From: a virus
Taxonomy: Duplodnaviria; Heunggongvirae; Uroviricota; Caudoviricetes
Virus record (IMG/VR): IMGVR_UViG_2541047745_000004
Coordinates: 1-8,633 of that record
Strand: one strand, 5' to 3'
Length of the DNA stretch: 8,633 nucleotides
Below, piece after piece: positions 1-8,633 of the stretch. A program made the position numbers and the translations under genes. The notes under the pieces are model-generated. The model saw nothing but the letters and a program-made list of their open reading frames with translations, made no database searches and was not told the origin of the DNA. Position 1 is the stretch's first letter. Every line of letters begins with the position of its first letter.

Positions 1-462
1 ATGCTGGGTGATTGTTTCCCTCCTGATTTTAAGGCTAATTTTAGTCGTGAAAGAGGTATATCACCCGGTGATGTATTGTATCTTCATTGTGATTTTACGA
101 CCCCACCTAAAGTAAAATATATGGTGGTTGTTTGCTGTGAACCTCTTTTAGTTCTTCTAATAAATTCAGATATAAATGAATTTATTAAGAGAAACAATGA
201 TCTTATGGCTTGTCAGGTCGAAATTAATAGAGAGGACCATGATTTTCTTAAATGGGACTCATTTGTTAATTGCATTGAGGCTCATGCTGCTTTCGATCTT
301 GAAATTATTAAAGAGAAAATAGCCATCCAATATGGCGACGTGCTAAAAGGTCGCATTACAGATCATTGTATGAGACAAGTTCGATGTGCAGTTGAGATAT
401 CTAAAATCATGGTTAAACGGCATAAAAAACTGATACTCGCTGCTCTTCAACATTATGAATAA
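1..462 (+). CDS. hypothetical AT-rich accessory protein (153 aa as seen; start may lie upstream of the window)
   Basis: Open frame from position 1 to TAA at 460-462. Sampled stretches are about 30-38% GC versus about 50% or more in the neighbouring phage genes. Opposite strand to the adjacent early-left operon. Ends inside a perfect 12-bp hairpin. ATG at 1-3 coincides with the window edge, so the 5' end is unverified. No family recognised. Confidence 0.5.
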   Translation: MLGDCFPPDFKANFSRERGISPGDVLYLHCDFTTPPKVKYMVVVCCEPLLVLLINSDINEFIKRNNDLMACQVEINREDHDFLKWDSFVNCIEAHAAFDLEIIKEKIAIQYGDVLKGRITDHCMRQVRCAVEISKIMVKRHKKLILAALQHYE

Positions 463-487
463 ACCCACCTTTGGATGGGTTTATTCA
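456..487. terminator. hairpin between convergent genes, possible shared/bidirectional terminator
   Basis: Perfect inverted repeat TGAATAAACCCA (456-467) / TGGGTTTATTCA (476-487) with an 8-nt loop. It overlaps the TAA of ORF 1..462 and ends 9 nt before the stop (496-498) of the convergent minus-strand gene. Plus-strand 3' flank ATATTCTATTT is moderately U-rich; the minus-strand flank is not. Confidence 0.45.
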
Positions 488-495
488 TATTCTAT

Positions 496-768
496 TTAAA
501 TGAGCCTTTGTTTATGGGTTCTGACCCTTTCCCACTCAGCACGCCCTTCTTCTCGCCTTTTGTCTATGTATTCCGCAAGATCCTGAATATTGATGCAACG
601 TTTTGCTTTTTGTGATGTGCCGATGCGATATGTTGGAACGGGCAACTTACAAGCGTTTGCTTTTGCTTCTGCCGTGGCTGGACTCATGCCAAAGTACTTT
701 TGGCTAACTGCTGAGAGTTCAATGTTAGGGGTATTGAATTCAGCCATCAGTAAAAACAAGGTGTTCAT
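496..768 (-). CDS. small DNA-binding protein, PrtN/excisionase-like (about 90 aa)
   Basis: ORF track gives 496..795. I prefer ATG at 768 (MNTLFLLMAEF...) because GGAG at 774-777 gives a 5-nt spacer; alternative ATGs at 780 and 795. The segment ...KLPVPTYRIGTSQKAKRCINIQDLAEYIDKRREEG... resembles phage PrtN/excisionase-type proteins as I recall them. Family call is tentative. Confidence 0.45.
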   Translation of the reverse strand: MNTLFLLMAEFNTPNIELSAVSQKYFGMSPATAEAKANACKLPVPTYRIGTSQKAKRCINIQDLAEYIDKRREEGRAEWERVRTHKQRLI

Positions 769-804
769 AATTTTCTCCATCAAAACCGGCTGCACCCGGA
801 AAAA

Positions 805-1377
805 TCATAATTCTGTGCTGGTGGCAGGAATTAATTTCTGCCAGATAGCTGAAACATATTTTGCCTGATGACGAGCATCAGCCAGGGCGTTGTGCCGTTC
901 GCCATCGAAAGGCATGTCCATTTTGGGGGCGAATCCGATGGAACGCCCAAGCGTAACGATCGTGCGTACATCGTGATCATTCCAGTACGCCCATGGGCAG
1001 ATTTGTCCTGCTCGTTCATAAGCTCCGCGTAAAATTACGTTGTCGAAGGTGGCCCCGTTACCCCAAACTTTTAAATATTTCGTATTGCCTGCGTGCCGAT
1101 TAATGAAATGGCTCAGTTCAGAGAGTGCATCGCTGATCGACAAAGTATCATCAATACAGATTGCAGCTCGTGCTTCAGGGCTTTGTTTCAACCACCACAG
1201 GATGGTATCGCCGTCAGGTGTGGCCCCTTGCTCCATAGCACTGTCCAGGCTGACAACCGCATAGAATTCTTGTCCGATGTCTCCGGTTTCTGGAGTGAAG
1301 AACACCGCGCCAATGGAAACGATCGGTGCATCCTTATTTTTCCCCATCGTCTCAAGGTCGATCATTAAGTTGTTCAT
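805..1377 (-). CDS. DnaQ-like DEDDh 3'-5' exonuclease
   Basis: ORF track gives 805..1380 (GTG). ATG at 1377-1375 has AGGAGG (1385-1390) 7 nt upstream and overlaps the TGA of the upstream gene (TGATG). Three exonuclease motifs are visible in the translation: Exo I IDLET, Exo II WGNGATFDNV, Exo III HNALADARH. Confidence 0.75.
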   Translation of the reverse strand: MNNLMIDLETMGKNKDAPIVSIGAVFFTPETGDIGQEFYAVVSLDSAMEQGATPDGDTILWWLKQSPEARAAICIDDTLSISDALSELSHFINRHAGNTKYLKVWGNGATFDNVILRGAYERAGQICPWAYWNDHDVRTIVTLGRSIGFAPKMDMPFDGERHNALADARHQAKYVSAIWQKLIPATSTEL

Positions 1378-1913
1378 CACTTCACCTCCTGCGGCGGTTC
1401 CGGTAGCCGCATCCAGTGGGTTACATTGCGGCTCTGTGTTTCGAAGAACTCCTCACCATTGCGGACAACATCAAAAAACTCACTGTCTCGATATTGCGCA
1501 TAAAGAACGAATGCGCCATCACATAAAATAATTACGTGCTGACCATCATCTGGCATTCGCTCACTACAGCTTATCCAGCCAGCCGGAATTACCGGAGAGC
1601 AGGTTGACGTTTCCGAGATTTCCCGAAAGTTTCCGGCCTGAGGCATGGCGGCGCGGTGACACCAGATAATCCAGCCAATCGCCATATCCCATGCCATGTA
1701 TTCGCCATCGCCATTTTTTGCCCTGCGGCGATCTACAGATTCCCCGAAACGCTTCTCCATAAATAATTCATAGGCTGCCCGTTCATCCGATACTGCTTCC
1801 AGTGATGCCAGCGCGATTTCATAAGCCAGGCGCTCAATATTGTCTCGCACGTCCAGGCTGCCGATTCGCTCTCTGATTTCTTTAATCAGTTCTTTGTCGG
1901 TAAAAGTAGTCAT
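1377..1913 (-). CDS. phage protein with C-terminal DUF551-like domain (178 aa)
   Basis: ATG at 1913-1911 preceded by GAGGA at 7-nt spacing, 3 nt after the upstream stop. C-terminal ...GWISCSERMPDDG...THWMRLPEPP matches the DUF551 pattern from memory. Confidence 0.6.
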   Translation of the reverse strand: MTTFTDKELIKEIRERIGSLDVRDNIERLAYEIALASLEAVSDERAAYELFMEKRFGESVDRRRAKNGDGEYMAWDMAIGWIIWCHRAAMPQAGNFREISETSTCSPVIPAGWISCSERMPDDGQHVIILCDGAFVLYAQYRDSEFFDVVRNGEEFFETQSRNVTHWMRLPEPPQEVK

Positions 1914-1916
1914 GTG

Positions 1917-2204
1917 TTAGTCCTCATCCACTTCAACGCCATCTTTCAGCGTGATGCCGTGCCAATCATCAGCCCAACTGGTTAGCCCTGGCGCATCAAT
2001 GCTAGGCATATAGACGCTTGCAGTGTGGTAGCCCTTATCGTTATCAATGCTGGCAACGTGCTCGCCGTTGTATGCGCTCAGCGTGTCCAGGACGCTATAA
2101 AACTTTCCTCCGGCTGCCCTGAAATCCTTTACAGCCTTCACAAGGCGATTCCACGCTTTTTCCTGTTCTGGCGTCAGGTCGATTAATTCCTGCAAAGTTG
2201 CCAT
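1917..2204 (-). CDS. small acidic phage protein (95 aa), function unknown
   Basis: ORF track gives 1917..2246, but the in-frame ATG at 2204-2202 (MATLQELIDL...) has AAGGAGAG at 2210-2217 and sits 1 nt after the TGA (2206-2208) of the upstream gene. About 17 D/E versus 8 K/R, with an acidic C-terminus ...VEVDED. Confidence 0.55.
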   Translation of the reverse strand: MATLQELIDLTPEQEKAWNRLVKAVKDFRAAGGKFYSVLDTLSAYNGEHVASIDNDKGYHTASVYMPSIDAPGLTSWADDWHGITLKDGVEVDED

Positions 2205-2205
2205 A

Positions 2206-2892
2206 TCACTCTCCTTTGATGCGAATGCCAGCGGCGCGGGAATCATTCCATCGCTTTACTTCTTCACGAATTACGTCAATGCATTCTTTCGAATCCATTA
2301 GGTAATCTTCATCAAAAAGCCTTTCCTGTTCGTTTTCTATCGCAACAATGATTGCTTCAACTAACTTTTGTGCCTGAGAACCACTTTCTAACTCTGCAAT
2401 GCGCTTCTCTGCGGCTTCCAGCTTCTCGCGCATATCGTCAACGTACTCGACCAGAGATCCGCCAGCAGGAATTTCGCACTCCTCGACCAGTTGGAAGTAG
2501 ATATCAGCTGCGGCCCGTGTGTTGCTATGCCTAGCGTCGCCCATCTCACCTTCACGAAGAGCATCGCGTTCGGCGGTAAGATTGGCTATTTTGCTGTCTT
2601 TGCCTTCCAGCTCAACGCGCAGCTTCCCAACCGTAAGCGCAATCTCCTCGTTCTCCTGGTCGCGGCGTTTGATGTATTGCTGGTTTCTTTCCCGTTCATC
2701 CAGCAGTGCCAGCACGGTTTCTGGTCCGGTCAGAAATTTGAAGGCGTTGAGCGCATCAATATCCACACCGTAATCTTTAAGTTCCTGTTCACTTAACAAA
2801 TCATCATCAACTGGCAACATTAACAGGCGATCCATTGCCGGAATTGCACGCTCTGCCTCCTCACGCAGTGCCTGATAGTCAATCTTGCTCAC
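2206..2892 (-). CDS. Ea22-like (ead/Ea22 family) coiled-coil protein, 228 aa
   Basis: GTG start at 2892-2890 with AGGAGG (2899-2904) 6 nt upstream, overlapping the TGA of the upstream gene (GTGA). Segments ...LLDERERNQQYIKRRDQENEEIALTVGKLRVELE... and the C-terminus ...AGIRIKGE match lambda Ea22 as I remember it. Confidence 0.7.
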   Translation of the reverse strand: MSKIDYQALREEAERAIPAMDRLLMLPVDDDLLSEQELKDYGVDIDALNAFKFLTGPETVLALLDERERNQQYIKRRDQENEEIALTVGKLRVELEGKDSKIANLTAERDALREGEMGDARHSNTRAAADIYFQLVEECEIPAGGSLVEYVDDMREKLEAAEKRIAELESGSQAQKLVEAIIVAIENEQERLFDEDYLMDSKECIDVIREEVKRWNDSRAAGIRIKGE

Positions 2893-3443
2893 TGGTTGCC
2901 TCCTTTGCGAAGCTGTTCAGCAATACTTACGCATATCTCTGCGCCTCTAATCAGCCCCGGAACGTTCTTGTTTGGCCCAACTTCACCATCAACAAAATCA
3001 ATCATCGCGTTACGAGCCATATTCACCCCCTGCGCCCGCACTTCAGCCAGGCATTTGCGAAACTCGGAAACGTACTGTTCGACGCTCATTCCCCAGCTAA
3101 GTGGACATTCATTGAATGTTTCGCCTTCGTGCTCTTCATCAGGTAGCTCTTTGGTAAAGAACTCACGTTCAATGGCGTGGAGTGTGTCAGCAAAACGACG
3201 TAAGTTACTCAAACCTGTCGTAATGGAGAATTCAGGAGCATCACATCCGACGCCCATCTGCTGATAAACGGCGGTTTTGAAGGCCTTAAGCCCCGCATTC
3301 TCCGCCGCAAGCGCCGAAATCTTAGCCTCCGCTTCAGCAAATTTACGCACCAGATATTCAGCATTTGTTTCGTTAACCTTTAAATCTCGTGGGATGCATT
3401 TCCCGCGAAGAAACCCTTCCATTTCGAAAACATTCATGCGCAT
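2889..3443 (-). CDS. hypothetical early protein (182-184 aa)
   Basis: Start is either ATG 3443 (GGAG about 8 nt upstream) or ATG 3437, which overlaps the TGA of the YfdR-like gene (ATGA). Its stop overlaps the GTG of the Ea22-like gene. No family recognised. Occupies the position of yfdS/yfdT in CPS-53. Confidence 0.55.
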   Translation of the reverse strand: MRMNVFEMEGFLRGKCIPRDLKVNETNAEYLVRKFAEAEAKISALAAENAGLKAFKTAVYQQMGVGCDAPEFSITTGLSNLRRFADTLHAIEREFFTKELPDEEHEGETFNECPLSWGMSVEQYVSEFRKCLAEVRAQGVNMARNAMIDFVDGEVGPNKNVPGLIRGAEICVSIAEQLRKGGNQ

Positions 3444-3970
3444 TTGCGTAACTCCGATAACTCGTTAAAACGTTCCATAAACATCCCGTAGGCATGGCCT
3501 GGCGACAGTGGAATCACTTTGAACATCTCTGTTGCCGGGATACCTTCCAGTACAGGCCAGAAAGAGCCATCATCAAGCCCGAGATCGCGGCGTTCGGTTG
3601 CCAGCATGATGAGATCGGCATATTTCACGGGCGTGCTCATAACCGGGGGTAACCCGTATTTCTCACGGATTACGGCGTCTATTTTTTCTTCCATCCGTTT
3701 ATAGTCAGGAAGAAGGCGTTTCAGTGGCGCGGGGATGTCCTGACAATACGCTTCTGTTGCATCATGCATTAACGCTTCGAAAGCAAACTCCTGCGGTACC
3801 AGTTGGCTGCAAAGCACCGCATGTTGGGCGACGCTGTAGAAGTGTGAAAGATGTCCTGCAAAGCGACAGATATTTGAAAGGGAAACCGCGATATCGTTAA
3901 TCACGATGTCGTCTTTATTTATCCTGTCATAATAAAAATGCTTCCCGGAAAAAGTTTTAATAAATGACAT
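3434..3970 (-). CDS. yfdR: HD-domain phosphohydrolase, YfdR-like (YfbR/YfdR 5'-nucleotidase family)
   Basis: ORF track gives 3434..3997. ATG at 3970-3968 (MSFIKTFSGKHFYYD...) has GGAG 7 nt upstream. HD signature ...FAGHLSHFYSVAQHAV...LMHDATEAY.... N-terminus and length agree with my recollection of E. coli K-12 CPS-53 YfdR. Confidence 0.8.
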   Translation of the reverse strand: MSFIKTFSGKHFYYDRINKDDIVINDIAVSLSNICRFAGHLSHFYSVAQHAVLCSQLVPQEFAFEALMHDATEAYCQDIPAPLKRLLPDYKRMEEKIDAVIREKYGLPPVMSTPVKYADLIMLATERRDLGLDDGSFWPVLEGIPATEMFKVIPLSPGHAYGMFMERFNELSELRKCA

Positions 3971-4063
3971 TTTGTTCTCCACGTATATGCGCTGCACCGC
4001 GCTGAATTCTGGTAAAAGGAAGCCCTCACCATCCGGTGATTATTGAGTTAATTACGTTTCCAT

Positions 4064-4085
4064 AAATGCCCCCGCAGGGGCATTT
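4064..4085 (-). terminator. intra-operon hairpin between yfdQ and yfdR (attenuator- or terminator-like)
   Basis: Perfect 9-bp inverted repeat AAATGCCCC (4064-4072) / GGGGCATTT (4077-4085) with a 4-nt loop, 13 nt downstream of the yfdQ stop. A/T flanks on both sides but no long U-tract. Confidence 0.35.
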
Positions 4086-4097
4086 GCAGTAATGAAA

Positions 4098-4922
4098 TCA
4101 GGCGGTGAAAGTACCAATAAAGGTTTCGACTTTGCTGTCTTTGAATTTCTCAACAAGCAGATCACGAAATTCGTTAGCCATTTCTTCCTGCACCGCTTCC
4201 AGCTGAATAATGCGCAGAACCAGTACAGGACGATCGCCAGTGATAATGCTGAGGCGTAATTTAAATGGACGTTCTTTCAGACCTTCAAACGGAACGCATT
4301 TATATTCAAATGCCACTGGCATAATATCTTTGGTCTTCGCTTCGACAGACTCCATCAGGGAGCGTTTGCCGCTGAAGTCATTATCTTCAAAATCAGCGGT
4401 CTGGTTTGCTTCAATCGTGATTTTACGGACAGCCGCAGCCGCTTTTGTTGCCTGAATAGCGTCACCATTAGCATCAAAGCCCACAAGGTAGTCGGCCCAG
4501 TCTTCAATCCATTCTGCCAGTGACTTCTGGGAGTTACGCTCGCCGTTAACAGACAACAGAGCAGAGAACGGTGCTGTCTTTTTCAGTTTGAGAGTGGCGG
4601 TGTTATCTGCGTGACCTGGTTCATCAATAGTACCCAGGTTAAGCACACTGACGGCTCGCATATTATCGGCATCGATAAAGCAGCGGGTGCCTTCATCTGC
4701 AAGATCTTTAGAATAACGGGTAAAGTCATCGATGCTGGCAGTGGAAAGCGCACCACGGAAACGGAAGCGATTTAAATTAAATTTTTCCAGATCATGAATG
4801 CGGAAATTCTCAGGCAATGCCACAGCATCGGCACCAATCTTACTGATAATTTCATTAACACCCTGAGCAGAAATAAGGGCATGGATTTGATTAATTGCGG
4901 TTGCGTCTAAGTTCTGAGACAT
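4098..4922 (-). CDS. yfdQ: YfdQ-family protein (DUF2303), 274 aa
   Basis: ATG at 4922-4920 with GAGGA 6 nt upstream. Length and position immediately upstream of the yfdR-like gene match CPS-53 YfdQ as I recall. Not verified by search. Confidence 0.7.
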
Positions 4923-4987
4923 AATAAGTCCTCACTATATAAAGATATTCAGTGATGAGATAAATAATCGGTTAATTAAGAACGATA

Positions 4988-5350
4988 TTAATGACCTGCT
5001 GCGCGTAGTTTTCCGTCAGGTTCACCGGCAAGAGTCAGTAATTGTCCCTGGTCTTCCTGCAGAATAGTCAGACGACCACCGCGATTGACATACATCGGCG
5101 TTTCGGTGGTGTCTTCTTCGGAAATTTTCCCGCGGTTAGTCGGTCGAACATATGAGAGTTTGTGTTTGATTTTTACACGGTTCTCATCAAATGGTTCGAT
5201 TTCCAGGTTGAGTGAGACCTTACCTTTGGTTTTCGTGTTCATCACACCGGAAGCGACTTCACTGAGAACTGCGCCGATTTTGGTTTCAAATACGCCGCCG
5301 TCCAGCTCCCCGATAAATGCCTGCACATCAGTACTGCGTTCGCTAGCCAT
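4988..5350 (-). CDS. first early-left gene, hypothetical 120-aa protein (positional equivalent of yfdP)
   Basis: ORF track gives 4988..5668 (226 aa), but the extra N-terminal 106 codons are R/P/G-rich junk-like sequence inside the GC-rich region. ATG at 5350-5348 (MASERSTDVQ...) has GAGGAG 7 nt upstream. Confidence 0.6.
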   Translation of the reverse strand: MASERSTDVQAFIGELDGGVFETKIGAVLSEVASGVMNTKTKGKVSLNLEIEPFDENRVKIKHKLSYVRPTNRGKISEEDTTETPMYVNRGGRLTILQEDQGQLLTLAGEPDGKLRAAGH

Positions 5351-5818
5351 TTTGCTGCTCCTCATCATATCGACCCTGCAAGGTCGGTTGGTTTCTCCAC
5401 AAAACAGAGAAGAACACCTGCGGTGGCAGCCGCCCGGATGGATTGGGTTATGAGCCCGTCGTCCGGTGATGCTCTTCTCTGTTTTGTAAAAAGAGCGGTA
5501 CCAGCCGGAAGCAAGGGTACAAGCTGGTACCGCCAGGACTACACACAGCATAAAGTTGTGGTGCCGGGTGCCTCCCGGTGCCTGGCGAAGGTTGCACACC
5601 AGGCGGGTGGGTATCCACAGAAGGTCGACTGTCAGCCTCAACCTTAACCCGCGTGCGCTGAGCCGCATTCACCACAACGCTAAGGATTCTCTCTGGTTGA
5701 AAATACTTAGCTGTTATGTGCCTGCTTTTAGCCACATCAGGCGAGGTGGGCCTGGTTATTCCCCAACAACAAGGATTCGGCTAATCTGGATGACTCTGTT
5801 CTTAGAGGGGATAATTAA
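5351..5818. other. GC-rich, ORF-free, highly self-complementary intergenic element (candidate structured RNA or regulatory leader)
   Basis: About 58-60% GC in sampled stretches. Only low-complexity junk-like ORFs. Multiple inverted repeats: 5399-5415 vs 5471-5487, 5495-5505 vs 5523-5533, hairpin 5559-5581, 5588-5594 vs 5639-5645. Function not established. Confidence 0.4.
5399..5487. repeat. long inverted repeat (15 contiguous bp of 17-nt arms) with 55-nt spacer
   Basis: ACAAAACAGAGAAGAAC (5399-5415) versus GCTCTTCTCTGTTTTGT (5471-5487). The reverse complement of the right arm is ACAAAACAGAGAAGAGC, giving one mismatch. Confidence 0.8.
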
Positions 5819-6331
5819 ATGGGAGCGATTTATGTTAAACGTTTGATTCTGTCGGTAGCACTGATAATACCGATAGCATCCAATGCTTCTGATGCTTTGA
5901 ACCAGCCGAGCAGTAGTCTAAATGATGGTGTTGAGACTTTTTTTATTTCCTGCTTTGATATGCCTCAGGAAACAACTACTGATATGGACGCTTGTCAGAG
6001 AGTTCAGTTAGCTCAGGTTAGTTGGGTTAAGAATAAGTATTCGGTGGCCGCCCTGAATCGTTTGAAACAAGACAACAAGGATGATCCACAGCGTCTGCAG
6101 GAATTAACTGCTTCTTTTAACGCGGAAAGTGAAGCTTGGACAGAATTAATTGAGAAAGCGTCAAAGTCCGTCCAGGTTGATTATGCAGGAGGAACTATAG
6201 CTGGCACTGCAGTTGCATCACGTCAAATTGGTCTTCTGGAATTACAATCCCACGATATCTGGGAGCACTGGCTACGATTCGAGGACTCAACTCCTCCTCT
6301 TTTGCCAGAACCAAAGTTCAAATCTGAGTAA
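5819..6331 (+). CDS. secreted/periplasmic moron protein (170 aa) with Sec-type signal peptide
   Basis: ATG at 5819 with GAGGGG 8 nt upstream. N-terminus MGAIYVKRLILSVALIIPIASNA/SDA has a basic n-region, a hydrophobic core and an S-N-A cleavage motif, with no lipobox Cys. A sampled stretch is about 43% GC. Own intrinsic terminator downstream; convergent with cI. Possible LprI/DUF1311-like periplasmic protein, but that is a weak unverified recollection. Confidence 0.65.
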   Translation: MGAIYVKRLILSVALIIPIASNASDALNQPSSSLNDGVETFFISCFDMPQETTTDMDACQRVQLAQVSWVKNKYSVAALNRLKQDNKDDPQRLQELTASFNAESEAWTELIEKASKSVQVDYAGGTIAGTAVASRQIGLLELQSHDIWEHWLRFEDSTPPLLPEPKFKSE

Positions 6332-6340
6332 TAAGTCATC

Positions 6341-6357
6341 CAGATTGTTAAAGAGCG
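6341..6357 (-). promoter_or_regulatory. boxA-like antitermination motif on the leftward transcript
   Basis: Minus strand reads CGCTCTTTAACAATCTG. The core GCTCTTTAACAAT (13 nt) is identical to the E. coli rrn boxA core (UGCUCUUUAACAAU...) and fits the lambdoid boxA consensus CGCUCUU(U)A. It directly follows a hairpin (antisense of the moron terminator) and lies about 180 nt downstream of the operator repeats. Confidence 0.45.
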
Positions 6358-6358
6358 A

Positions 6359-6381
6359 AGCGTCCTATAGGGCGCTTTTTT
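6359..6381 (+). terminator. rho-independent terminator of the 5819..6331 gene
   Basis: Stem AGCGTCC (6359-6365) / GGGCGCT (6370-6376) with one G-U pair, loop TATA, followed by a T run at 6376-6381, about 28 nt after the stop codon. Confidence 0.65.
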
Positions 6382-6555
6382 GTTGCTAACGAATCATCCT
6401 GGACTTCATATGCCCCAGGCGGCTACTTCGTGGTCGTCCTGACTGTTCGTTTTTGACATTTACTGACCGCTTACGACACATGCACCATGCACCGTGTTGC
6501 AACCAGATTTTGTTGTAATCCTGTAGTTGGTCTGGAACAAAAGATAAAATTAAAA

Positions 6556-6592
6556 TGCGAGATGTGCAAGCAATATTTTGCGAGATGTGCAA
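6556..6592. promoter_or_regulatory. oL-like operator pair (tandem direct repeats) with candidate pL
   Basis: Perfect 14-bp direct repeat TGCGAGATGTGCAA at 6556-6569 and 6579-6592, sharing 11 of 14 positions with TGCGTGATAAGCAA at 7361-7374 in the cI/cro intergenic region. Candidate leftward promoter on the minus strand: -35 TTGCAC (6564-6569), 17-bp spacer, -10 TATCTT (6541-6546). Promoter assignment is tentative. Confidence 0.5.
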
Positions 6593-6605
6593 AATGATGG
6601 GTGAT

Positions 6606-6626
6606 AAAAAGCCACCTTTCGGTGGC
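6606..6626 (-). terminator. rho-independent terminator downstream of cI
   Basis: Minus-strand RNA forms GCCACC-GAAA-GGUGGC (6-bp GC stem, GNRA-type loop; plus 6611-6626) followed by UUUUU (plus A run 6606-6610), 20 nt after the cI stop. Confidence 0.6.
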
Positions 6627-6646
6627 CGATGGATGGGATATTGAAG

Positions 6647-7339
6647 TTAATTATGTCTCTTAAGGGTTTGCGACTGACTGATTAAGACCTTTCCAAAGAC
6701 CATGAATCGGTGTTCGTTTTCGCTAGTAATTCCCCATTCACGGTAAATCTGGTTATCAGAAATCACCAGCAGTTTGTCAGGAATCATTTGAAGTCTTTTA
6801 ACGTATATTTTGTCATCAAAACCAAAGACATATATACCATCACCATCAAACTGATTGATGCTGACATCAACGAAGATGAGATCTCCTGGCTCAATGGTTG
6901 GACACATACTGTCCCCACGAACGTTGATAACTTTGATGTGATTGGCTGGTCGTCCGCCGAACATTGATACAGCATTATCAGTTCTGTATTCGATGGCATG
7001 AATCACATCAATGACATCACCGCCCTGGATAAGGCCATTTCCCGCACTGGCACTGATATCCAGCATTTCAATACGGAACACATCCTTCACCTGCGCAACA
7101 TCCTCATCATTACTGTTTTTATATACAGTATTACTTTTGAGGGCAGAGGTAAAGAGATCAGCAATATCAACACCTAAGCTCTTGGCAATATTACTCAGTG
7201 TTTGTTCGGTAAATTGTTTCTGCTTACCCGTTTCTAAGCGCGAGATGTTCGCCGCATCTACTCCTATTGCTTCAGCGAGATCGGCGATTTTCATGTTCTT
7301 CGCTTGGCGAAGTTGTCTGACTCGGTTTCCTATGTTCAT
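6647..7339 (-). CDS. cI: CI-type prophage repressor (N-terminal XRE HTH, C-terminal S24 LexA-like autopeptidase)
   Basis: 230 aa. HTH ...IADLAEAIGVDAANISRLETGK.... Ala-Gly at SASAGNG as candidate autocleavage site. Catalytic Ser in RGDSMCP and Lys in YVKRLQ. Divergent from the cro-like gene. Confidence 0.85.
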   Translation of the reverse strand: MNIGNRVRQLRQAKNMKIADLAEAIGVDAANISRLETGKQKQFTEQTLSNIAKSLGVDIADLFTSALKSNTVYKNSNDEDVAQVKDVFRIEMLDISASAGNGLIQGGDVIDVIHAIEYRTDNAVSMFGGRPANHIKVINVRGDSMCPTIEPGDLIFVDVSINQFDGDGIYVFGFDDKIYVKRLQMIPDKLLVISDNQIYREWGITSENEHRFMVFGKVLISQSQTLKRHN

Positions 7340-7436
7340 GCGTTTATTACATTTCTTTATTGCGTGATAAGCAAATCAACTTGCGCAAAACACTTGCGTG
7401 AAATAACATGCATAACGCGCAATATTTGGAGGGTAT
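7340..7436. promoter_or_regulatory. divergent switch region (oR operators, pRM and pR)
   Basis: TTGCG half-sites at 7360, 7381 and 7394, with GCAA/CGCAA at 7371-7374, 7384-7388 and 7418-7422. Candidate pRM on the minus strand: -35 TTGCTT (7369-7374), 17-bp spacer, -10 TGTAAT (7346-7351), placing the start about at the cI ATG with no Shine-Dalgarno sequence (leaderless, as for lambda cI). Candidate pR: -35 TTGCGC (7381-7386), -10 TAACAT (7404-7409), weaker. Cro RBS GGAGGG at 7428-7433. Confidence 0.55.
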
Positions 7437-7697
7437 ATGCAATCACCATTACGAAATGTGCGTAAGGCGCATGGTTTCACTTTGCAGCATGTTGCTGCGG
7501 GTGTTCAAGTCAATCCAGCGACGTTGAGTCGTATTGAGAGGCTGGAACAGATTCCATCTATCGAGCTTGCAGAACGTTTAGCCAATTTTTTTAAGGGTGA
7601 AATCAGCGAAATGCAGATTCTTTATCCGGCACGTTTTCAATCTAGCCAAAACCAGAATGGGTTTAAACCACAGGAACAGGAGGTGAACCGTGGGTAA
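7437..7697 (+). CDS. Cro-like HTH regulator (86 aa)
   Basis: ATG 7437 after GGAGGG. HTH ...FTLQHVAAGVQVNPATLSRIER.... Divergent from cI. Overlaps the next gene by 8 nt. Confidence 0.65.
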   Translation: MQSPLRNVRKAHGFTLQHVAAGVQVNPATLSRIERLEQIPSIELAERLANFFKGEISEMQILYPARFQSSQNQNGFKPQEQEVNRG

Positions 7698-8241
7698 GCA
7701 TCACTGGAAAGTAGACAAACAGCCTGAGTGGTTCGTGAAAGCTGTCAGAAAAACTATCGCAGCGTTGCCTGGGGGTTACGCTGAAGCTGCTGACTGGCTG
7801 GATGTAACAGAGAACGCATTATTTAACCGCCTTCGTGCCGATGGCGATCAGATTTTCCCGCTGGGATGGGCAATGGTTTTACAGCGTGCTGCTGGCACTC
7901 ACTACATTGCGGATGCTGTCGCACAGTCTGCTGGTGGGGTGTTTGTATCGCTTCCTGAAATTGAGGAAGTAGAGAACGCAGATATAAACCAGCGCCTGCT
8001 GGAAGTCATCGAACAGATCGGGAGTTACTCAAAGCAGATTCGTTCGGCAATCGAAGATGGGGTAGTGGAGCCACACGAGCAGACAGCAATTAATGATGAG
8101 TTGTATCTGTCAATTTCGAAGCTCCAGGAGCATGCAGCACTGGTCTACAAAATCTTTTGCGCTCCAGAAAAGAGTGACGCCCGCGAGTGTGCAGCTCCGG
8201 GCGTCGTGGCGTTTTGTGTCTGTGGAGAAACTAACGCATGA
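7690..8241 (+). CDS. CII-like phage regulatory protein (CP76-family-like, tentative), 183 aa
   Basis: GTG 7690 with AGGAGG (7678-7683) 6 nt upstream. Position immediately after cro. Overall resemblance to phage regulatory CII (CP76) family proteins from memory; family assignment unverified. Confidence 0.55.
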   Translation: MGKHHWKVDKQPEWFVKAVRKTIAALPGGYAEAADWLDVTENALFNRLRADGDQIFPLGWAMVLQRAAGTHYIADAVAQSAGGVFVSLPEIEEVENADINQRLLEVIEQIGSYSKQIRSAIEDGVVEPHEQTAINDELYLSISKLQEHAALVYKIFCAPEKSDARECAAPGVVAFCVCGETNA

Positions 8242-8633
8242 ACAGTTTAACGGCAAATAACCGTTTGTCGCAACAGCTGGTGGTCAGCGTCGCTGAACAC
8301 CTGTTGTTACGGCATGAATGCAGATTACCAAATCACCTGGCTGTAAGTAACCACAGAGAACTTTACCTGACTGTGGGGGGCGAGTTGTGCAGGAACTTAA
8401 CCGCTGGTTTCGTGACGGAAGAGGACTTTATGTTCATGTTATTCGTTGGGAGCCAGAAACACAGCGCGTTATCTATCTTCGCAAAGACTACCCGCATGAG
8501 TGCTTTAGTCCTTTGTGGAAATTCAGGCGTGATTTTGTTGAGTGTGAAGGACCACCAGCACATTGATTCTGCCATTCCGGGACGTTACACTGTTCAGGCA
8601 CCTTATAAAGCGGGTGCCGGGATTGGCGTCCTG
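8238..8633 (+). CDS. hypothetical protein, open at window end; possibly frameshifted at a G6 tract (see findings)
   Basis: ATG 8238 overlaps the TGA of the CII-like gene (ATGA). The frame has no stop to position 8633, which is why the ORF track omits it. The first 47 codons look protein-like and the remainder looks less convincing. Product unknown. Confidence 0.45.
   Translation, partial: MNSLTANNRLSQQLVVSVAEHLLLRHECRLPNHLAVSNHRELYLTVGGELCRNLTAGFVTEEDFMFMLFVGSQKHSALSIFAKTTRMSALVLCGNSGVILLSVKDHQHIDSAIPGRYTVQAPYKAGAGIGVL

Follow-up and report, generated by a model that had tools for sequence, protein, structure and literature searches.

A candidate one-way terminator and N-independent boxA on the early-left transcript of N-less Escherichia coli prophages

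How does RNA polymerase reach the early-left genes of a prophage that carries no recognizable N protein, when its route runs in antisense across a gene on the opposite strand? The question is raised by an 8,633-nucleotide (nt) stretch of viral DNA, IMG/VR record IMGVR_UViG_2541047745_000004, positions 1 to 8,633 (referred to here as the window), which represents an Escherichia coli (E. coli) prophage of the CPS-53/SfII/SfIV type. We focus on a hairpin fused to a boxA sequence at 6338–6395, between the repressor region and the early-left genes. We consider it reasonably probable, from the comparisons presented below, that this unit is a two-faced insulator at a cargo slot, which combines a rightward terminator with a leftward N-independent, anti-Rho boxA of the rrn/T7 type. 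An initial annotation of the window had described the boxA as a nutL-like site adjoining the antisense of a moron terminator. The factual statements of that annotation are all confirmed. Its interpretation is partly supported and is corrected here on the ownership of the hairpin, on a second hairpin at 4064–4085, on a structured RNA that it had overlooked at 6387–6453 (the Y-leader) and on a precedent in phage T7.

Identity and conservation of the hairpin–boxA unit

Direct reading of the window gives GCTCTTTAACAAT on the minus strand at 6356–6344, the same as the boxA of the E. coli rrn operons, or CGCTCTTTAACAA when position 6357 is counted in, with a conserved TCTGG next to it. The boxA 19-mer is GCUUCGCUCUUUAACAAUC. 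The site has no mismatch to the published gamma-proteobacterial consensus GYTCTTTAANA (PMC5725501). It is the only exact match to the 13-mer in the window and no match occurs in 200 dinucleotide shuffles. The chance expectation computed analytically for the window is 0.00026, in agreement with the value of about 0.0003 claimed initially. It is also the only site in the window that fits the consensus, and the 16.5-kb identical prophage stretch L001 likewise contains a single consensus site, on the pL-sense strand. The corresponding string of the rrnG leader, CACTGCTCTTTAACAATTTATCAGACAATCTGTGTGGGCACTCGAAG (CACTGCTCTTTAACAATTTATC...), is found at 100% identity in 5,426 of 5,426 complete E. coli genomes (median copy number 7) and is located between the rrn promoter region and the 16S rRNA. 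A site for integration host factor (IHF) near 6340–6353 on the plus strand was considered and rejected, as by-eye comparison shows no fit to WATCAANNNNTTR.

The hairpin next to boxA reads differently in the two directions. On the plus strand it has the form of an intrinsic terminator at 6357–6385, with the stem GAAGCGTCC/GGGCGCTTT containing a U·G wobble, the loop TATA and a T-tract. The terminator scan places the stem at 6357–6378 with 9 pairs followed by TTTGTT, starting 26 nt past the stop codon of the adjacent cargo gene, and classifies it as intrinsic. In the leftward form on the pL transcript (6358–6385, minus strand) the hairpin is preceded by six A residues, contains a C·A mismatch and has no U-tract, as originally described. 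The predicted folding energy is –12.4 kcal/mol for the rightward RNA and –7.2 kcal/mol for the leftward RNA; the latter hairpin is weaker because the U·G pair turns into a C·A mismatch, and no U-tract follows. The leftward hairpin sits 1 nt ahead of boxA, where the rrn leader has its boxB hairpin. The rrn-like order of hairpin and then boxA had been pointed out before, and the rrnG leader indeed has the same order.

The hairpin had been assigned to the adjacent gene as the moron's own terminator, and this assignment does not stand. A search with window 5780–6395 as query gives matches in 1,037 of the 5,426 E. coli genomes, only 142 of which contain the cargo gene. In the remaining genomes (~900 of the 1,037) the match is confined to window 6338–6395, corresponding to query positions 559–616, and these limits define a unit of ~56 nt composed of the A-tract, the hairpin and boxA. 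Since the unit recurs without the gene, the hairpin is not owned by this moron; the unit also accompanies at least four unrelated cargo genes. Prophages bearing this boxA are present in ~19%, or about a fifth, of complete E. coli genomes, and E. coli UTI89, ATCC 11775 and F11 have the identical locus. The ~56-nt unit is also found in phages SfIV, Kati, PhiR29, PhiR49, 569R4 and 689R6, and in Klebsiella phages with otherwise unrelated flanks. Phages SfII and SfV share the repressor/leader region with the window and lack the unit. A survey of one genome per species revealed the unit in prophages of at least 15 genera of Enterobacterales, including Escherichia, Shigella, Scandinavium, Enterobacter, Buttiauxella, Symbiopectobacterium, Atlantibacter, Sodalis, Kosakonia, Citrobacter, Mangrovibacter, Pseudescherichia, Cedecea and Raoultella.

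Searches for variants of the unit were anchored in three ways, on boxA, on the hairpin and on the junction GGACGCTTNGCTCTTTAA, and their results agree. Among the unit copies the hairpin loop takes at least 15 forms, and a single A, C or T, or no base at all, separates the hairpin from boxA. Variation in boxA is limited to the N position of the consensus (GCTCTTTAA[C/A/G]AA in the hairpin- and GGACGCTTNGCTCTTTAA-anchored searches). The AAT that follows the variable position is constant, though the junction pattern did not impose it, and GATCTTTAACA is seen in one of ~60 unit copies. The stem GCGCCC/GGACGC is nearly invariant, including the position that forms C·A in the leftward and U·G in the rightward RNA; in one locus (L067) this position is repaired to G–C. 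Conservation extends to the A-tract of the unit, the complement of which forms the T-tract of the rightward terminator, and boxA has the pL-sense orientation in every relative. We read this pattern as selection for a rightward terminator, a weak leftward hairpin and an intact boxA.

The opposite-strand cargo slot and the early-left leader

The cargo gene in the window (5819–6331, plus strand) belongs to phrog_7681 and encodes 170 residues with a signal-peptide-like N-terminus. The pL transcript crosses it in antisense, and the layout bears out the earlier statement that boxA lies just before the point of entry. A weak match of the cargo protein to LprI, a lysozyme inhibitor, has an E-value of 0.006, and PADLOC gives no significant match of the cargo genes to defence genes. 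The comparison covered 33 unique viral contigs that carry the unit. In almost all of them the first gene met by the pL transcript past boxA is encoded on the opposite strand, with its end at the hairpin. The slot genes of the window and of L003, L004, L019, L023 and L029 belong to at least four families that are unrelated to one another and of unknown function (phrog_7681, 1244, 6315 and 5286), and no family could be assigned to the co-directional open reading frames (ORFs) that overlap the slot genes. The NCBI PGAP annotation of three further E. coli genomes has an equal layout. In the genome paper on SfIV only Q is discussed, and ORFs 35 and 36, which fill the cargo slot, are called unique with function unknown.

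The association between boxA and opposite-strand cargo was counted in 105 unique loci sharing the Y-leader, with crude ORF calling and a threshold of at least 100 amino acids. A consensus boxA is present in 22 of these loci, and in 19 of the 22 the first such ORF is on the opposite strand. The other 83 loci have no boxA; 76 of these contain an ORF that reaches the threshold, in 19 of the 76 on the opposite strand. Fisher's test gives p = 3e-7 for this difference, among loci that are related and not independent. A second type of hairpin, which is not a terminator (GCCGGA..UCCGGC-AU-boxA), likewise precedes opposite-strand cargo. This argues that boxA is not merely a passenger of the terminator.

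The leftward transcript starts in a region of lambdoid layout. A cI-like repressor gene with a helix-turn-helix and a Peptidase_S24 domain occupies 6647–7339 (minus strand), with its terminator at 6610–6627 (minus strand), detected by the terminator scan and also given as a terminator in the SfII annotation. Two operator-like repeats TTGCACATCTCGCA span 6556–6592, with copies at 6592–6579 and 6569–6556. A putative pL promoter, TTGCAC-17-TATCTT, was read from the sequence at 6541–6569 (minus strand) and overlaps the second repeat. We place the transcription start near 6534, ~178 nt before boxA, because relatives of other immunity types carry consensus-grade leftward promoters in the equivalent place (TTGACA-16/17-CATAAT in SfIV, and others in ZF40, L058 and L068), 10–25 nt ahead of the Y-leader. 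With respect to the putative pL, the position and strand of boxA are nutL-like, in line with the initial description. On the leftward side the prophage encodes integrase, DUF551, Ead/Ea22, yfdR, yfdQ (DUF2303) and yfdP; on the rightward side it encodes cro and the CII-like ymfL, and L001 has a gene for a Q-family antiterminator further to the right.

In the leftward direction, the first gene with convincing signs of translation is yfdP at 4988–5350 (minus strand), for which the RefSeq start at 5350 has a GAGGAG ribosome-binding site ahead of its ATG. A longer ORF of 226 residues at 4988–5668 (minus strand) is probably over-extended, as phrog_204 covers its residues 101–225 only. With the start of yfdP at 5350 and not at the upstream ORF start, the pL leader is ~1.18 kb long. 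It comprises the Y-leader (6453–6387), the hairpin and boxA (6385–6344), the antisense of the cargo gene (6331–5819) and a structured stretch (5800–5366). The ~994 nt from boxA to the yfdP start contain no notable co-directional ORF, nor does a listing of small ORFs show one between pL and 5350. The antisense-cargo RNA contains more C than G, with C/G ratios of 1.2–2.1. The stretch at 5366–5800 (minus strand) appears non-coding; its 435 nt fold with –181 kcal/mol (z = –5.95) and include stems of 13 and 25 base pairs, with ORFs in several frames on both strands. It is labelled a frameshifted pseudogene in RefSeq, is conserved in SfII, SfIV and many contigs, and probably represents a large structured element, either a non-coding RNA or one at the DNA level.

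The Y-leader, a 67-nt Y-shaped structured RNA at 6387–6453 (minus strand), is located between pL and the hairpin and gives a covariance-model hit of 90 bits in the window. It is composed of a closing helix, a 3-bp hairpin, the invariant core CAGGACGNCCACGAAGUAGCC and a covarying hairpin, with helices at 6450–6446/6392–6388 and 6418–6414/6401–6397. It directly follows pL, with or without a boxA, in SfII, SfV, SfIV, ST64B, ZF40, mEp237, phiNP, YeP1-3, AH07 and many viral contigs, and the model finds one copy per phage. In 32 distinct sequences 96.2% of the cells are paired, compared to 74% for shuffled and 24–46% for slid partners, and 10 of 13 pairs show compensatory changes. One helix changes from ACGAA/UUCGU to CCACC/GGUGG and GUCAUC/GAUGAC, and another from CCUGG/CCAGG to CUACC/GGUAG and CCCCA/UGGGG. 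The Y-leader is revealed by covariation only; the fold of the whole leader (6325–6534) is not unusually stable (z = 0.03). An Rfam scan of the whole window at gathering thresholds gives nothing, and a permissive scan of 5700–6700 gives only chance-level matches, among which a Phe_leader match is the terminator itself. The distance from the Y-leader core to boxA is 86–87 nt in all loci with boxA but one, where it is 76 nt. RNAalifold proposed a pairing of GAAGUAGC with boxA that would sequester boxA; we rejected it because the core is equally invariant in the 83 loci that have no boxA.

We regard the Y-leader as a candidate antiterminator or regulatory RNA of a new kind; it may be put-like, or the main processive antiterminator of these N-less phages. 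Its likeness to put was judged against HK022 and HK639. The covariance model has no match in either phage, blastn gives none against their put sites, and reading of both putL sequences reveals no likeness, so that identity with the HK022/HK639 put RNA was rejected.

A possible mechanism and its alternatives

On the reading that we favour, the unit at 6338–6395 would in the rightward direction terminate transcription of whichever cargo gene fills the slot and thereby shield the leftward operator OL, pL and cI. In the leftward direction, after induction, the hairpin weakened by the C·A mismatch and lacking a U-tract would let RNA polymerase pass without terminating, and the boxA RNA exposed 1 nt past the hairpin would bind NusB–NusE (S10). 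Together with NusA, NusG and SuhB, NusB–NusE is predicted to turn RNA polymerase into an N-independent, Rho-resistant complex. This complex would cross ~1 kb of untranslated RNA, made up of the cargo antisense (6331–5819) and the structured stretch (5800–5366), before RNA polymerase reaches yfdP and the other early-left genes. Rho acts mainly on long untranslated and antisense RNAs, and it is chiefly termination by Rho that boxA complexes of the rrn type oppose; rrn antitermination can do without both boxB and boxC.

The initial annotation had extended the effect of boxA to leftward read-through of a hairpin at 4064–4085 (minus strand). This is not implied by the favoured reading: because rrn-type boxA complexes mainly oppose Rho, override would not be expected if this hairpin is a true intrinsic terminator. 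The hairpin lies between yfdQ and yfdR and reads AAAUGCCCC-UGCG-GGGGCAUUU followed by AUGG, a terminator-like structure that the terminator scan did not flag.

Several observations weigh against the proposed mechanism. There is no GU-rich boxC 3′ of boxA, and beyond boxA only TCTGG is conserved. The putative pL matches the promoter consensus at 7 of 12 positions and was not flagged by the promoter scan. The structured RNA at 5366–5800 would be a poor Rho substrate, so a need for protection from Rho is something that we infer. The orientation statistics are supportive and not decisive, given the relatedness of the loci and the crude ORF calling, and about one quarter of the leaders without boxA also face an opposite-strand ORF. 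The stem of the unit is conserved without covariation, and recent spread or recombination at module junctions is therefore an alternative explanation for the stem. Finally, the Y-leader offers another source of antitermination on the same transcript.

The Y-leader could be the real, put-like processive antiterminator, with boxA in an accessory or redundant role as an RNA folding aid or with a minor anti-Rho effect. It follows pL in all these phages irrespective of boxA (83 of the 105 unique loci have none), covaries strongly and occurs once per phage; HK022 and HK639 are likewise N-less lambdoid phages with put at the start of the pL transcript. We nevertheless regard this reading as unlikely, as the Y-leader resembles neither put RNA in sequence or covariance model, and as the reading leaves unexplained both the perfect boxA and the presence of boxA where opposite-strand cargo follows. 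The roles of the two elements are not mutually exclusive. More tentatively, they could form a two-part system of early-left antitermination by cis-acting RNA in N-less prophages (SfII/SfIV/SfV, ST64B, ZF40, mEp237 and CPS-53-like elements), with the put-like Y-leader complemented by a boxA–terminator "cargo dock" where opposite-strand cargo has been inserted. The dock, which may be portable, may insulate the cargo gene and license pL transcription across it. We hold this combined proposal to be possible and rather doubtful. It is quite improbable, in our view, that the 13-mer is kept for a reason unrelated to Nus factors, as part of the terminator or the 3′ end of the cargo, as a DNA-binding site or as a recombination junction, with a fortuitous or vestigial match to boxA. 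The unit is indeed located exactly at the junction where the cargo varies, and conservation of the stem without covariation is what a recombination linker or recent spread would give. The same hairpin, however, occurs without the 13-mer in many unrelated contexts, so the terminator can dispense with it. The only position at which boxA varies is the one that the NusB/E consensus tolerates, the hairpin ahead of boxA is a different one in family B and in T7-like leaders, and the low chance expectation given above also speaks against a fortuitous match.

Two further explanations accept boxA as a Nus target and assign it a different function. As in the suhB 5′ untranslated region, a Nus complex could block translation of a nearby co-directional small ORF and promote Rho termination, making boxA part of an early-left attenuator. 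In the commonest type of relative, that of SfIV, a co-directional ORF of 68 residues (phrog_1744) starts 56 nt past the first base of boxA, which is ~43–45 nt after the boxA end and inside the range scanned by Baniulyte et al. (PMC5725501). A co-directional ORF after boxA is missing from the window and from many relatives, and boxA is conserved regardless, which makes an attenuator very unlikely. A classical nutL would fit the position of boxA, and the boxA consensus is common to P22 and phi21. Such a site would require an unrecognised N-like protein from elsewhere in the phage or from another prophage. Pfam and PHROG scans of all large ORFs, together with the listing of small ORFs from pL to yfdP, show no N-like protein, as the initial annotation had stated for the region after boxA. 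No second consensus boxA that could serve as a nutR equivalent is found in the pR operon of L001 from cro to Q. No conserved hairpin lies 3′ of boxA, where the alignments diverge directly past TCTGG; the hairpin ahead of boxA has an unconserved loop, which is hence no specific binding site for a protein. The lack of a boxB or conserved loop after boxA, of an N-like protein and of nutR excludes a nut site of the lambda type, and leaves the version with an unrecognised N-like partner highly improbable.

Known systems and other leader modules

The closest known counterpart of the proposed N-independent boxA is the E. coli rrn leader (boxB–boxA–boxC, with NusA/B/E/G, SuhB and S4), in which boxA-nucleated Nus complexes protect the rRNA transcripts from Rho. 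The boxA 13-mer is identical, a hairpin is located directly 5′ of boxA (..AGCGGC-ACU-GCUCUUUAACAA in rrnG and ..GGACGCUU-C-GCUCUUUAACAA in the prophage), no phage protein is needed and a long untranslated RNA follows. The gap between hairpin and boxA is 3 nt in rrnG and 1 nt in the prophage. The prophage unit differs in having no GU-rich boxC, in a hairpin that doubles as an opposite-strand terminator and in its location in a repressor-controlled phage operon, and its binding of Nus factors is a prediction. The nutL sites of lambda, P22 and phi21 share with the unit a boxA and a position downstream of pL; the prophage has the reverse order, with the hairpin first, and lacks a boxB with a conserved loop, an N gene and a nutR.

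An N-independent phage boxA has a precedent in T7, a comparison that was missing from the initial annotation. According to Savalia et al. 2010, as cited in PMC3709561, the boxA of T7 is an antitermination element in a phage without N. As proposed for the prophage, the T7 boxA is downstream of early promoters used by the host RNA polymerase. T7 differs in being virulent and in that its boxA is followed by translated co-directional genes, with neither a back-to-back terminator nor antisense cargo. The 17-mer GCTCTTTAACAATCTGG, consisting of boxA and TCTGG, is common to the prophage unit and to two T7-like contigs (L118 and L124), in which it lies ~110 nt ahead of ocr. This points to a phage form of boxA that is longer than the rrn core.

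A boxA upstream of CRISPR arrays protects the untranslated transcript from Rho (Stringer et al. 2020, PMC7665894). It resembles the arrangement proposed here as a stand-alone boxA ahead of a long untranslated transcript with the same anti-Rho logic, and differs in its genetic context and in having no fused terminator. The put sites of HK022 and HK639 are cis-acting antitermination RNAs past pL of N-less lambdoid phages. The Y-leader shares their position and size without likeness in sequence or covariance model to putL, and the boxA unit is not put-like. The put RNA acts on the zinc-binding domain of the RNA polymerase β′ subunit.

We found no literature that links boxA to SfII, SfIV, CPS-53 or ST64B. 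N-independent anti-Rho protection by boxA is established for rRNA and CRISPR transcripts, and boxA antitermination is reported for T7; among the papers searched, none connects it to temperate N-less lambdoid prophages. If functional, the unit would represent a natural and very frequent target of the Nus complex, given its presence in ~19% of complete E. coli genomes, and would explain early-left expression across a non-coding leader of ~1 kb. It would also follow a compact design rule, in which a G·U wobble that becomes a C·A mismatch on the other strand makes a one-way terminator, and would suggest how prophages accept opposite-strand cargo without polar effects on their own operon.

Other modules and boxA-like strings were observed in further elements. 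In Klebsiella and other prophages (L004 at ~3760–3800, minus strand, L023, L049, L050 and L130 at 1581–1615), a module made up of AACGUUCCGC and a small hairpin with a GGCGAUAA-type loop is located between pL and the hairpin–boxA unit, and its stem covaries (GCCC/GGGC, GUCC/GGAC and ACCC/GGGU). A different module, GCCGUUUAACCCACGGCGUCGG..., resembles stem I of put (UUUAAACCAUGCGUCGG) and is present in ST64B (L128, 1635–1720) and in L078 and L119, in the latter two between the Y-leader and the hairpin–boxA unit. In E. coli PK8261 (L361, 2863–3939) a ParA-family gene lies between the repressor and the hairpin–boxA unit, on the repressor's strand. Two viral contigs (L092 and L101) carry a put-stem-I-like AGUCGUACGGCGCGACUUAACCC with a perfect boxA ~12 nt later, in an unrelated element upstream of a Rha-like gene. 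In HK639 (L126) the string CAGCTCTTTGCGAGG at ~34225–34235 (minus strand), a degenerate boxA-like sequence in which GCTCTTT is followed by GCGA, lies past the two put stems and inside the feature annotated as "putL-like antiterminator RNA" at 34187–34312.

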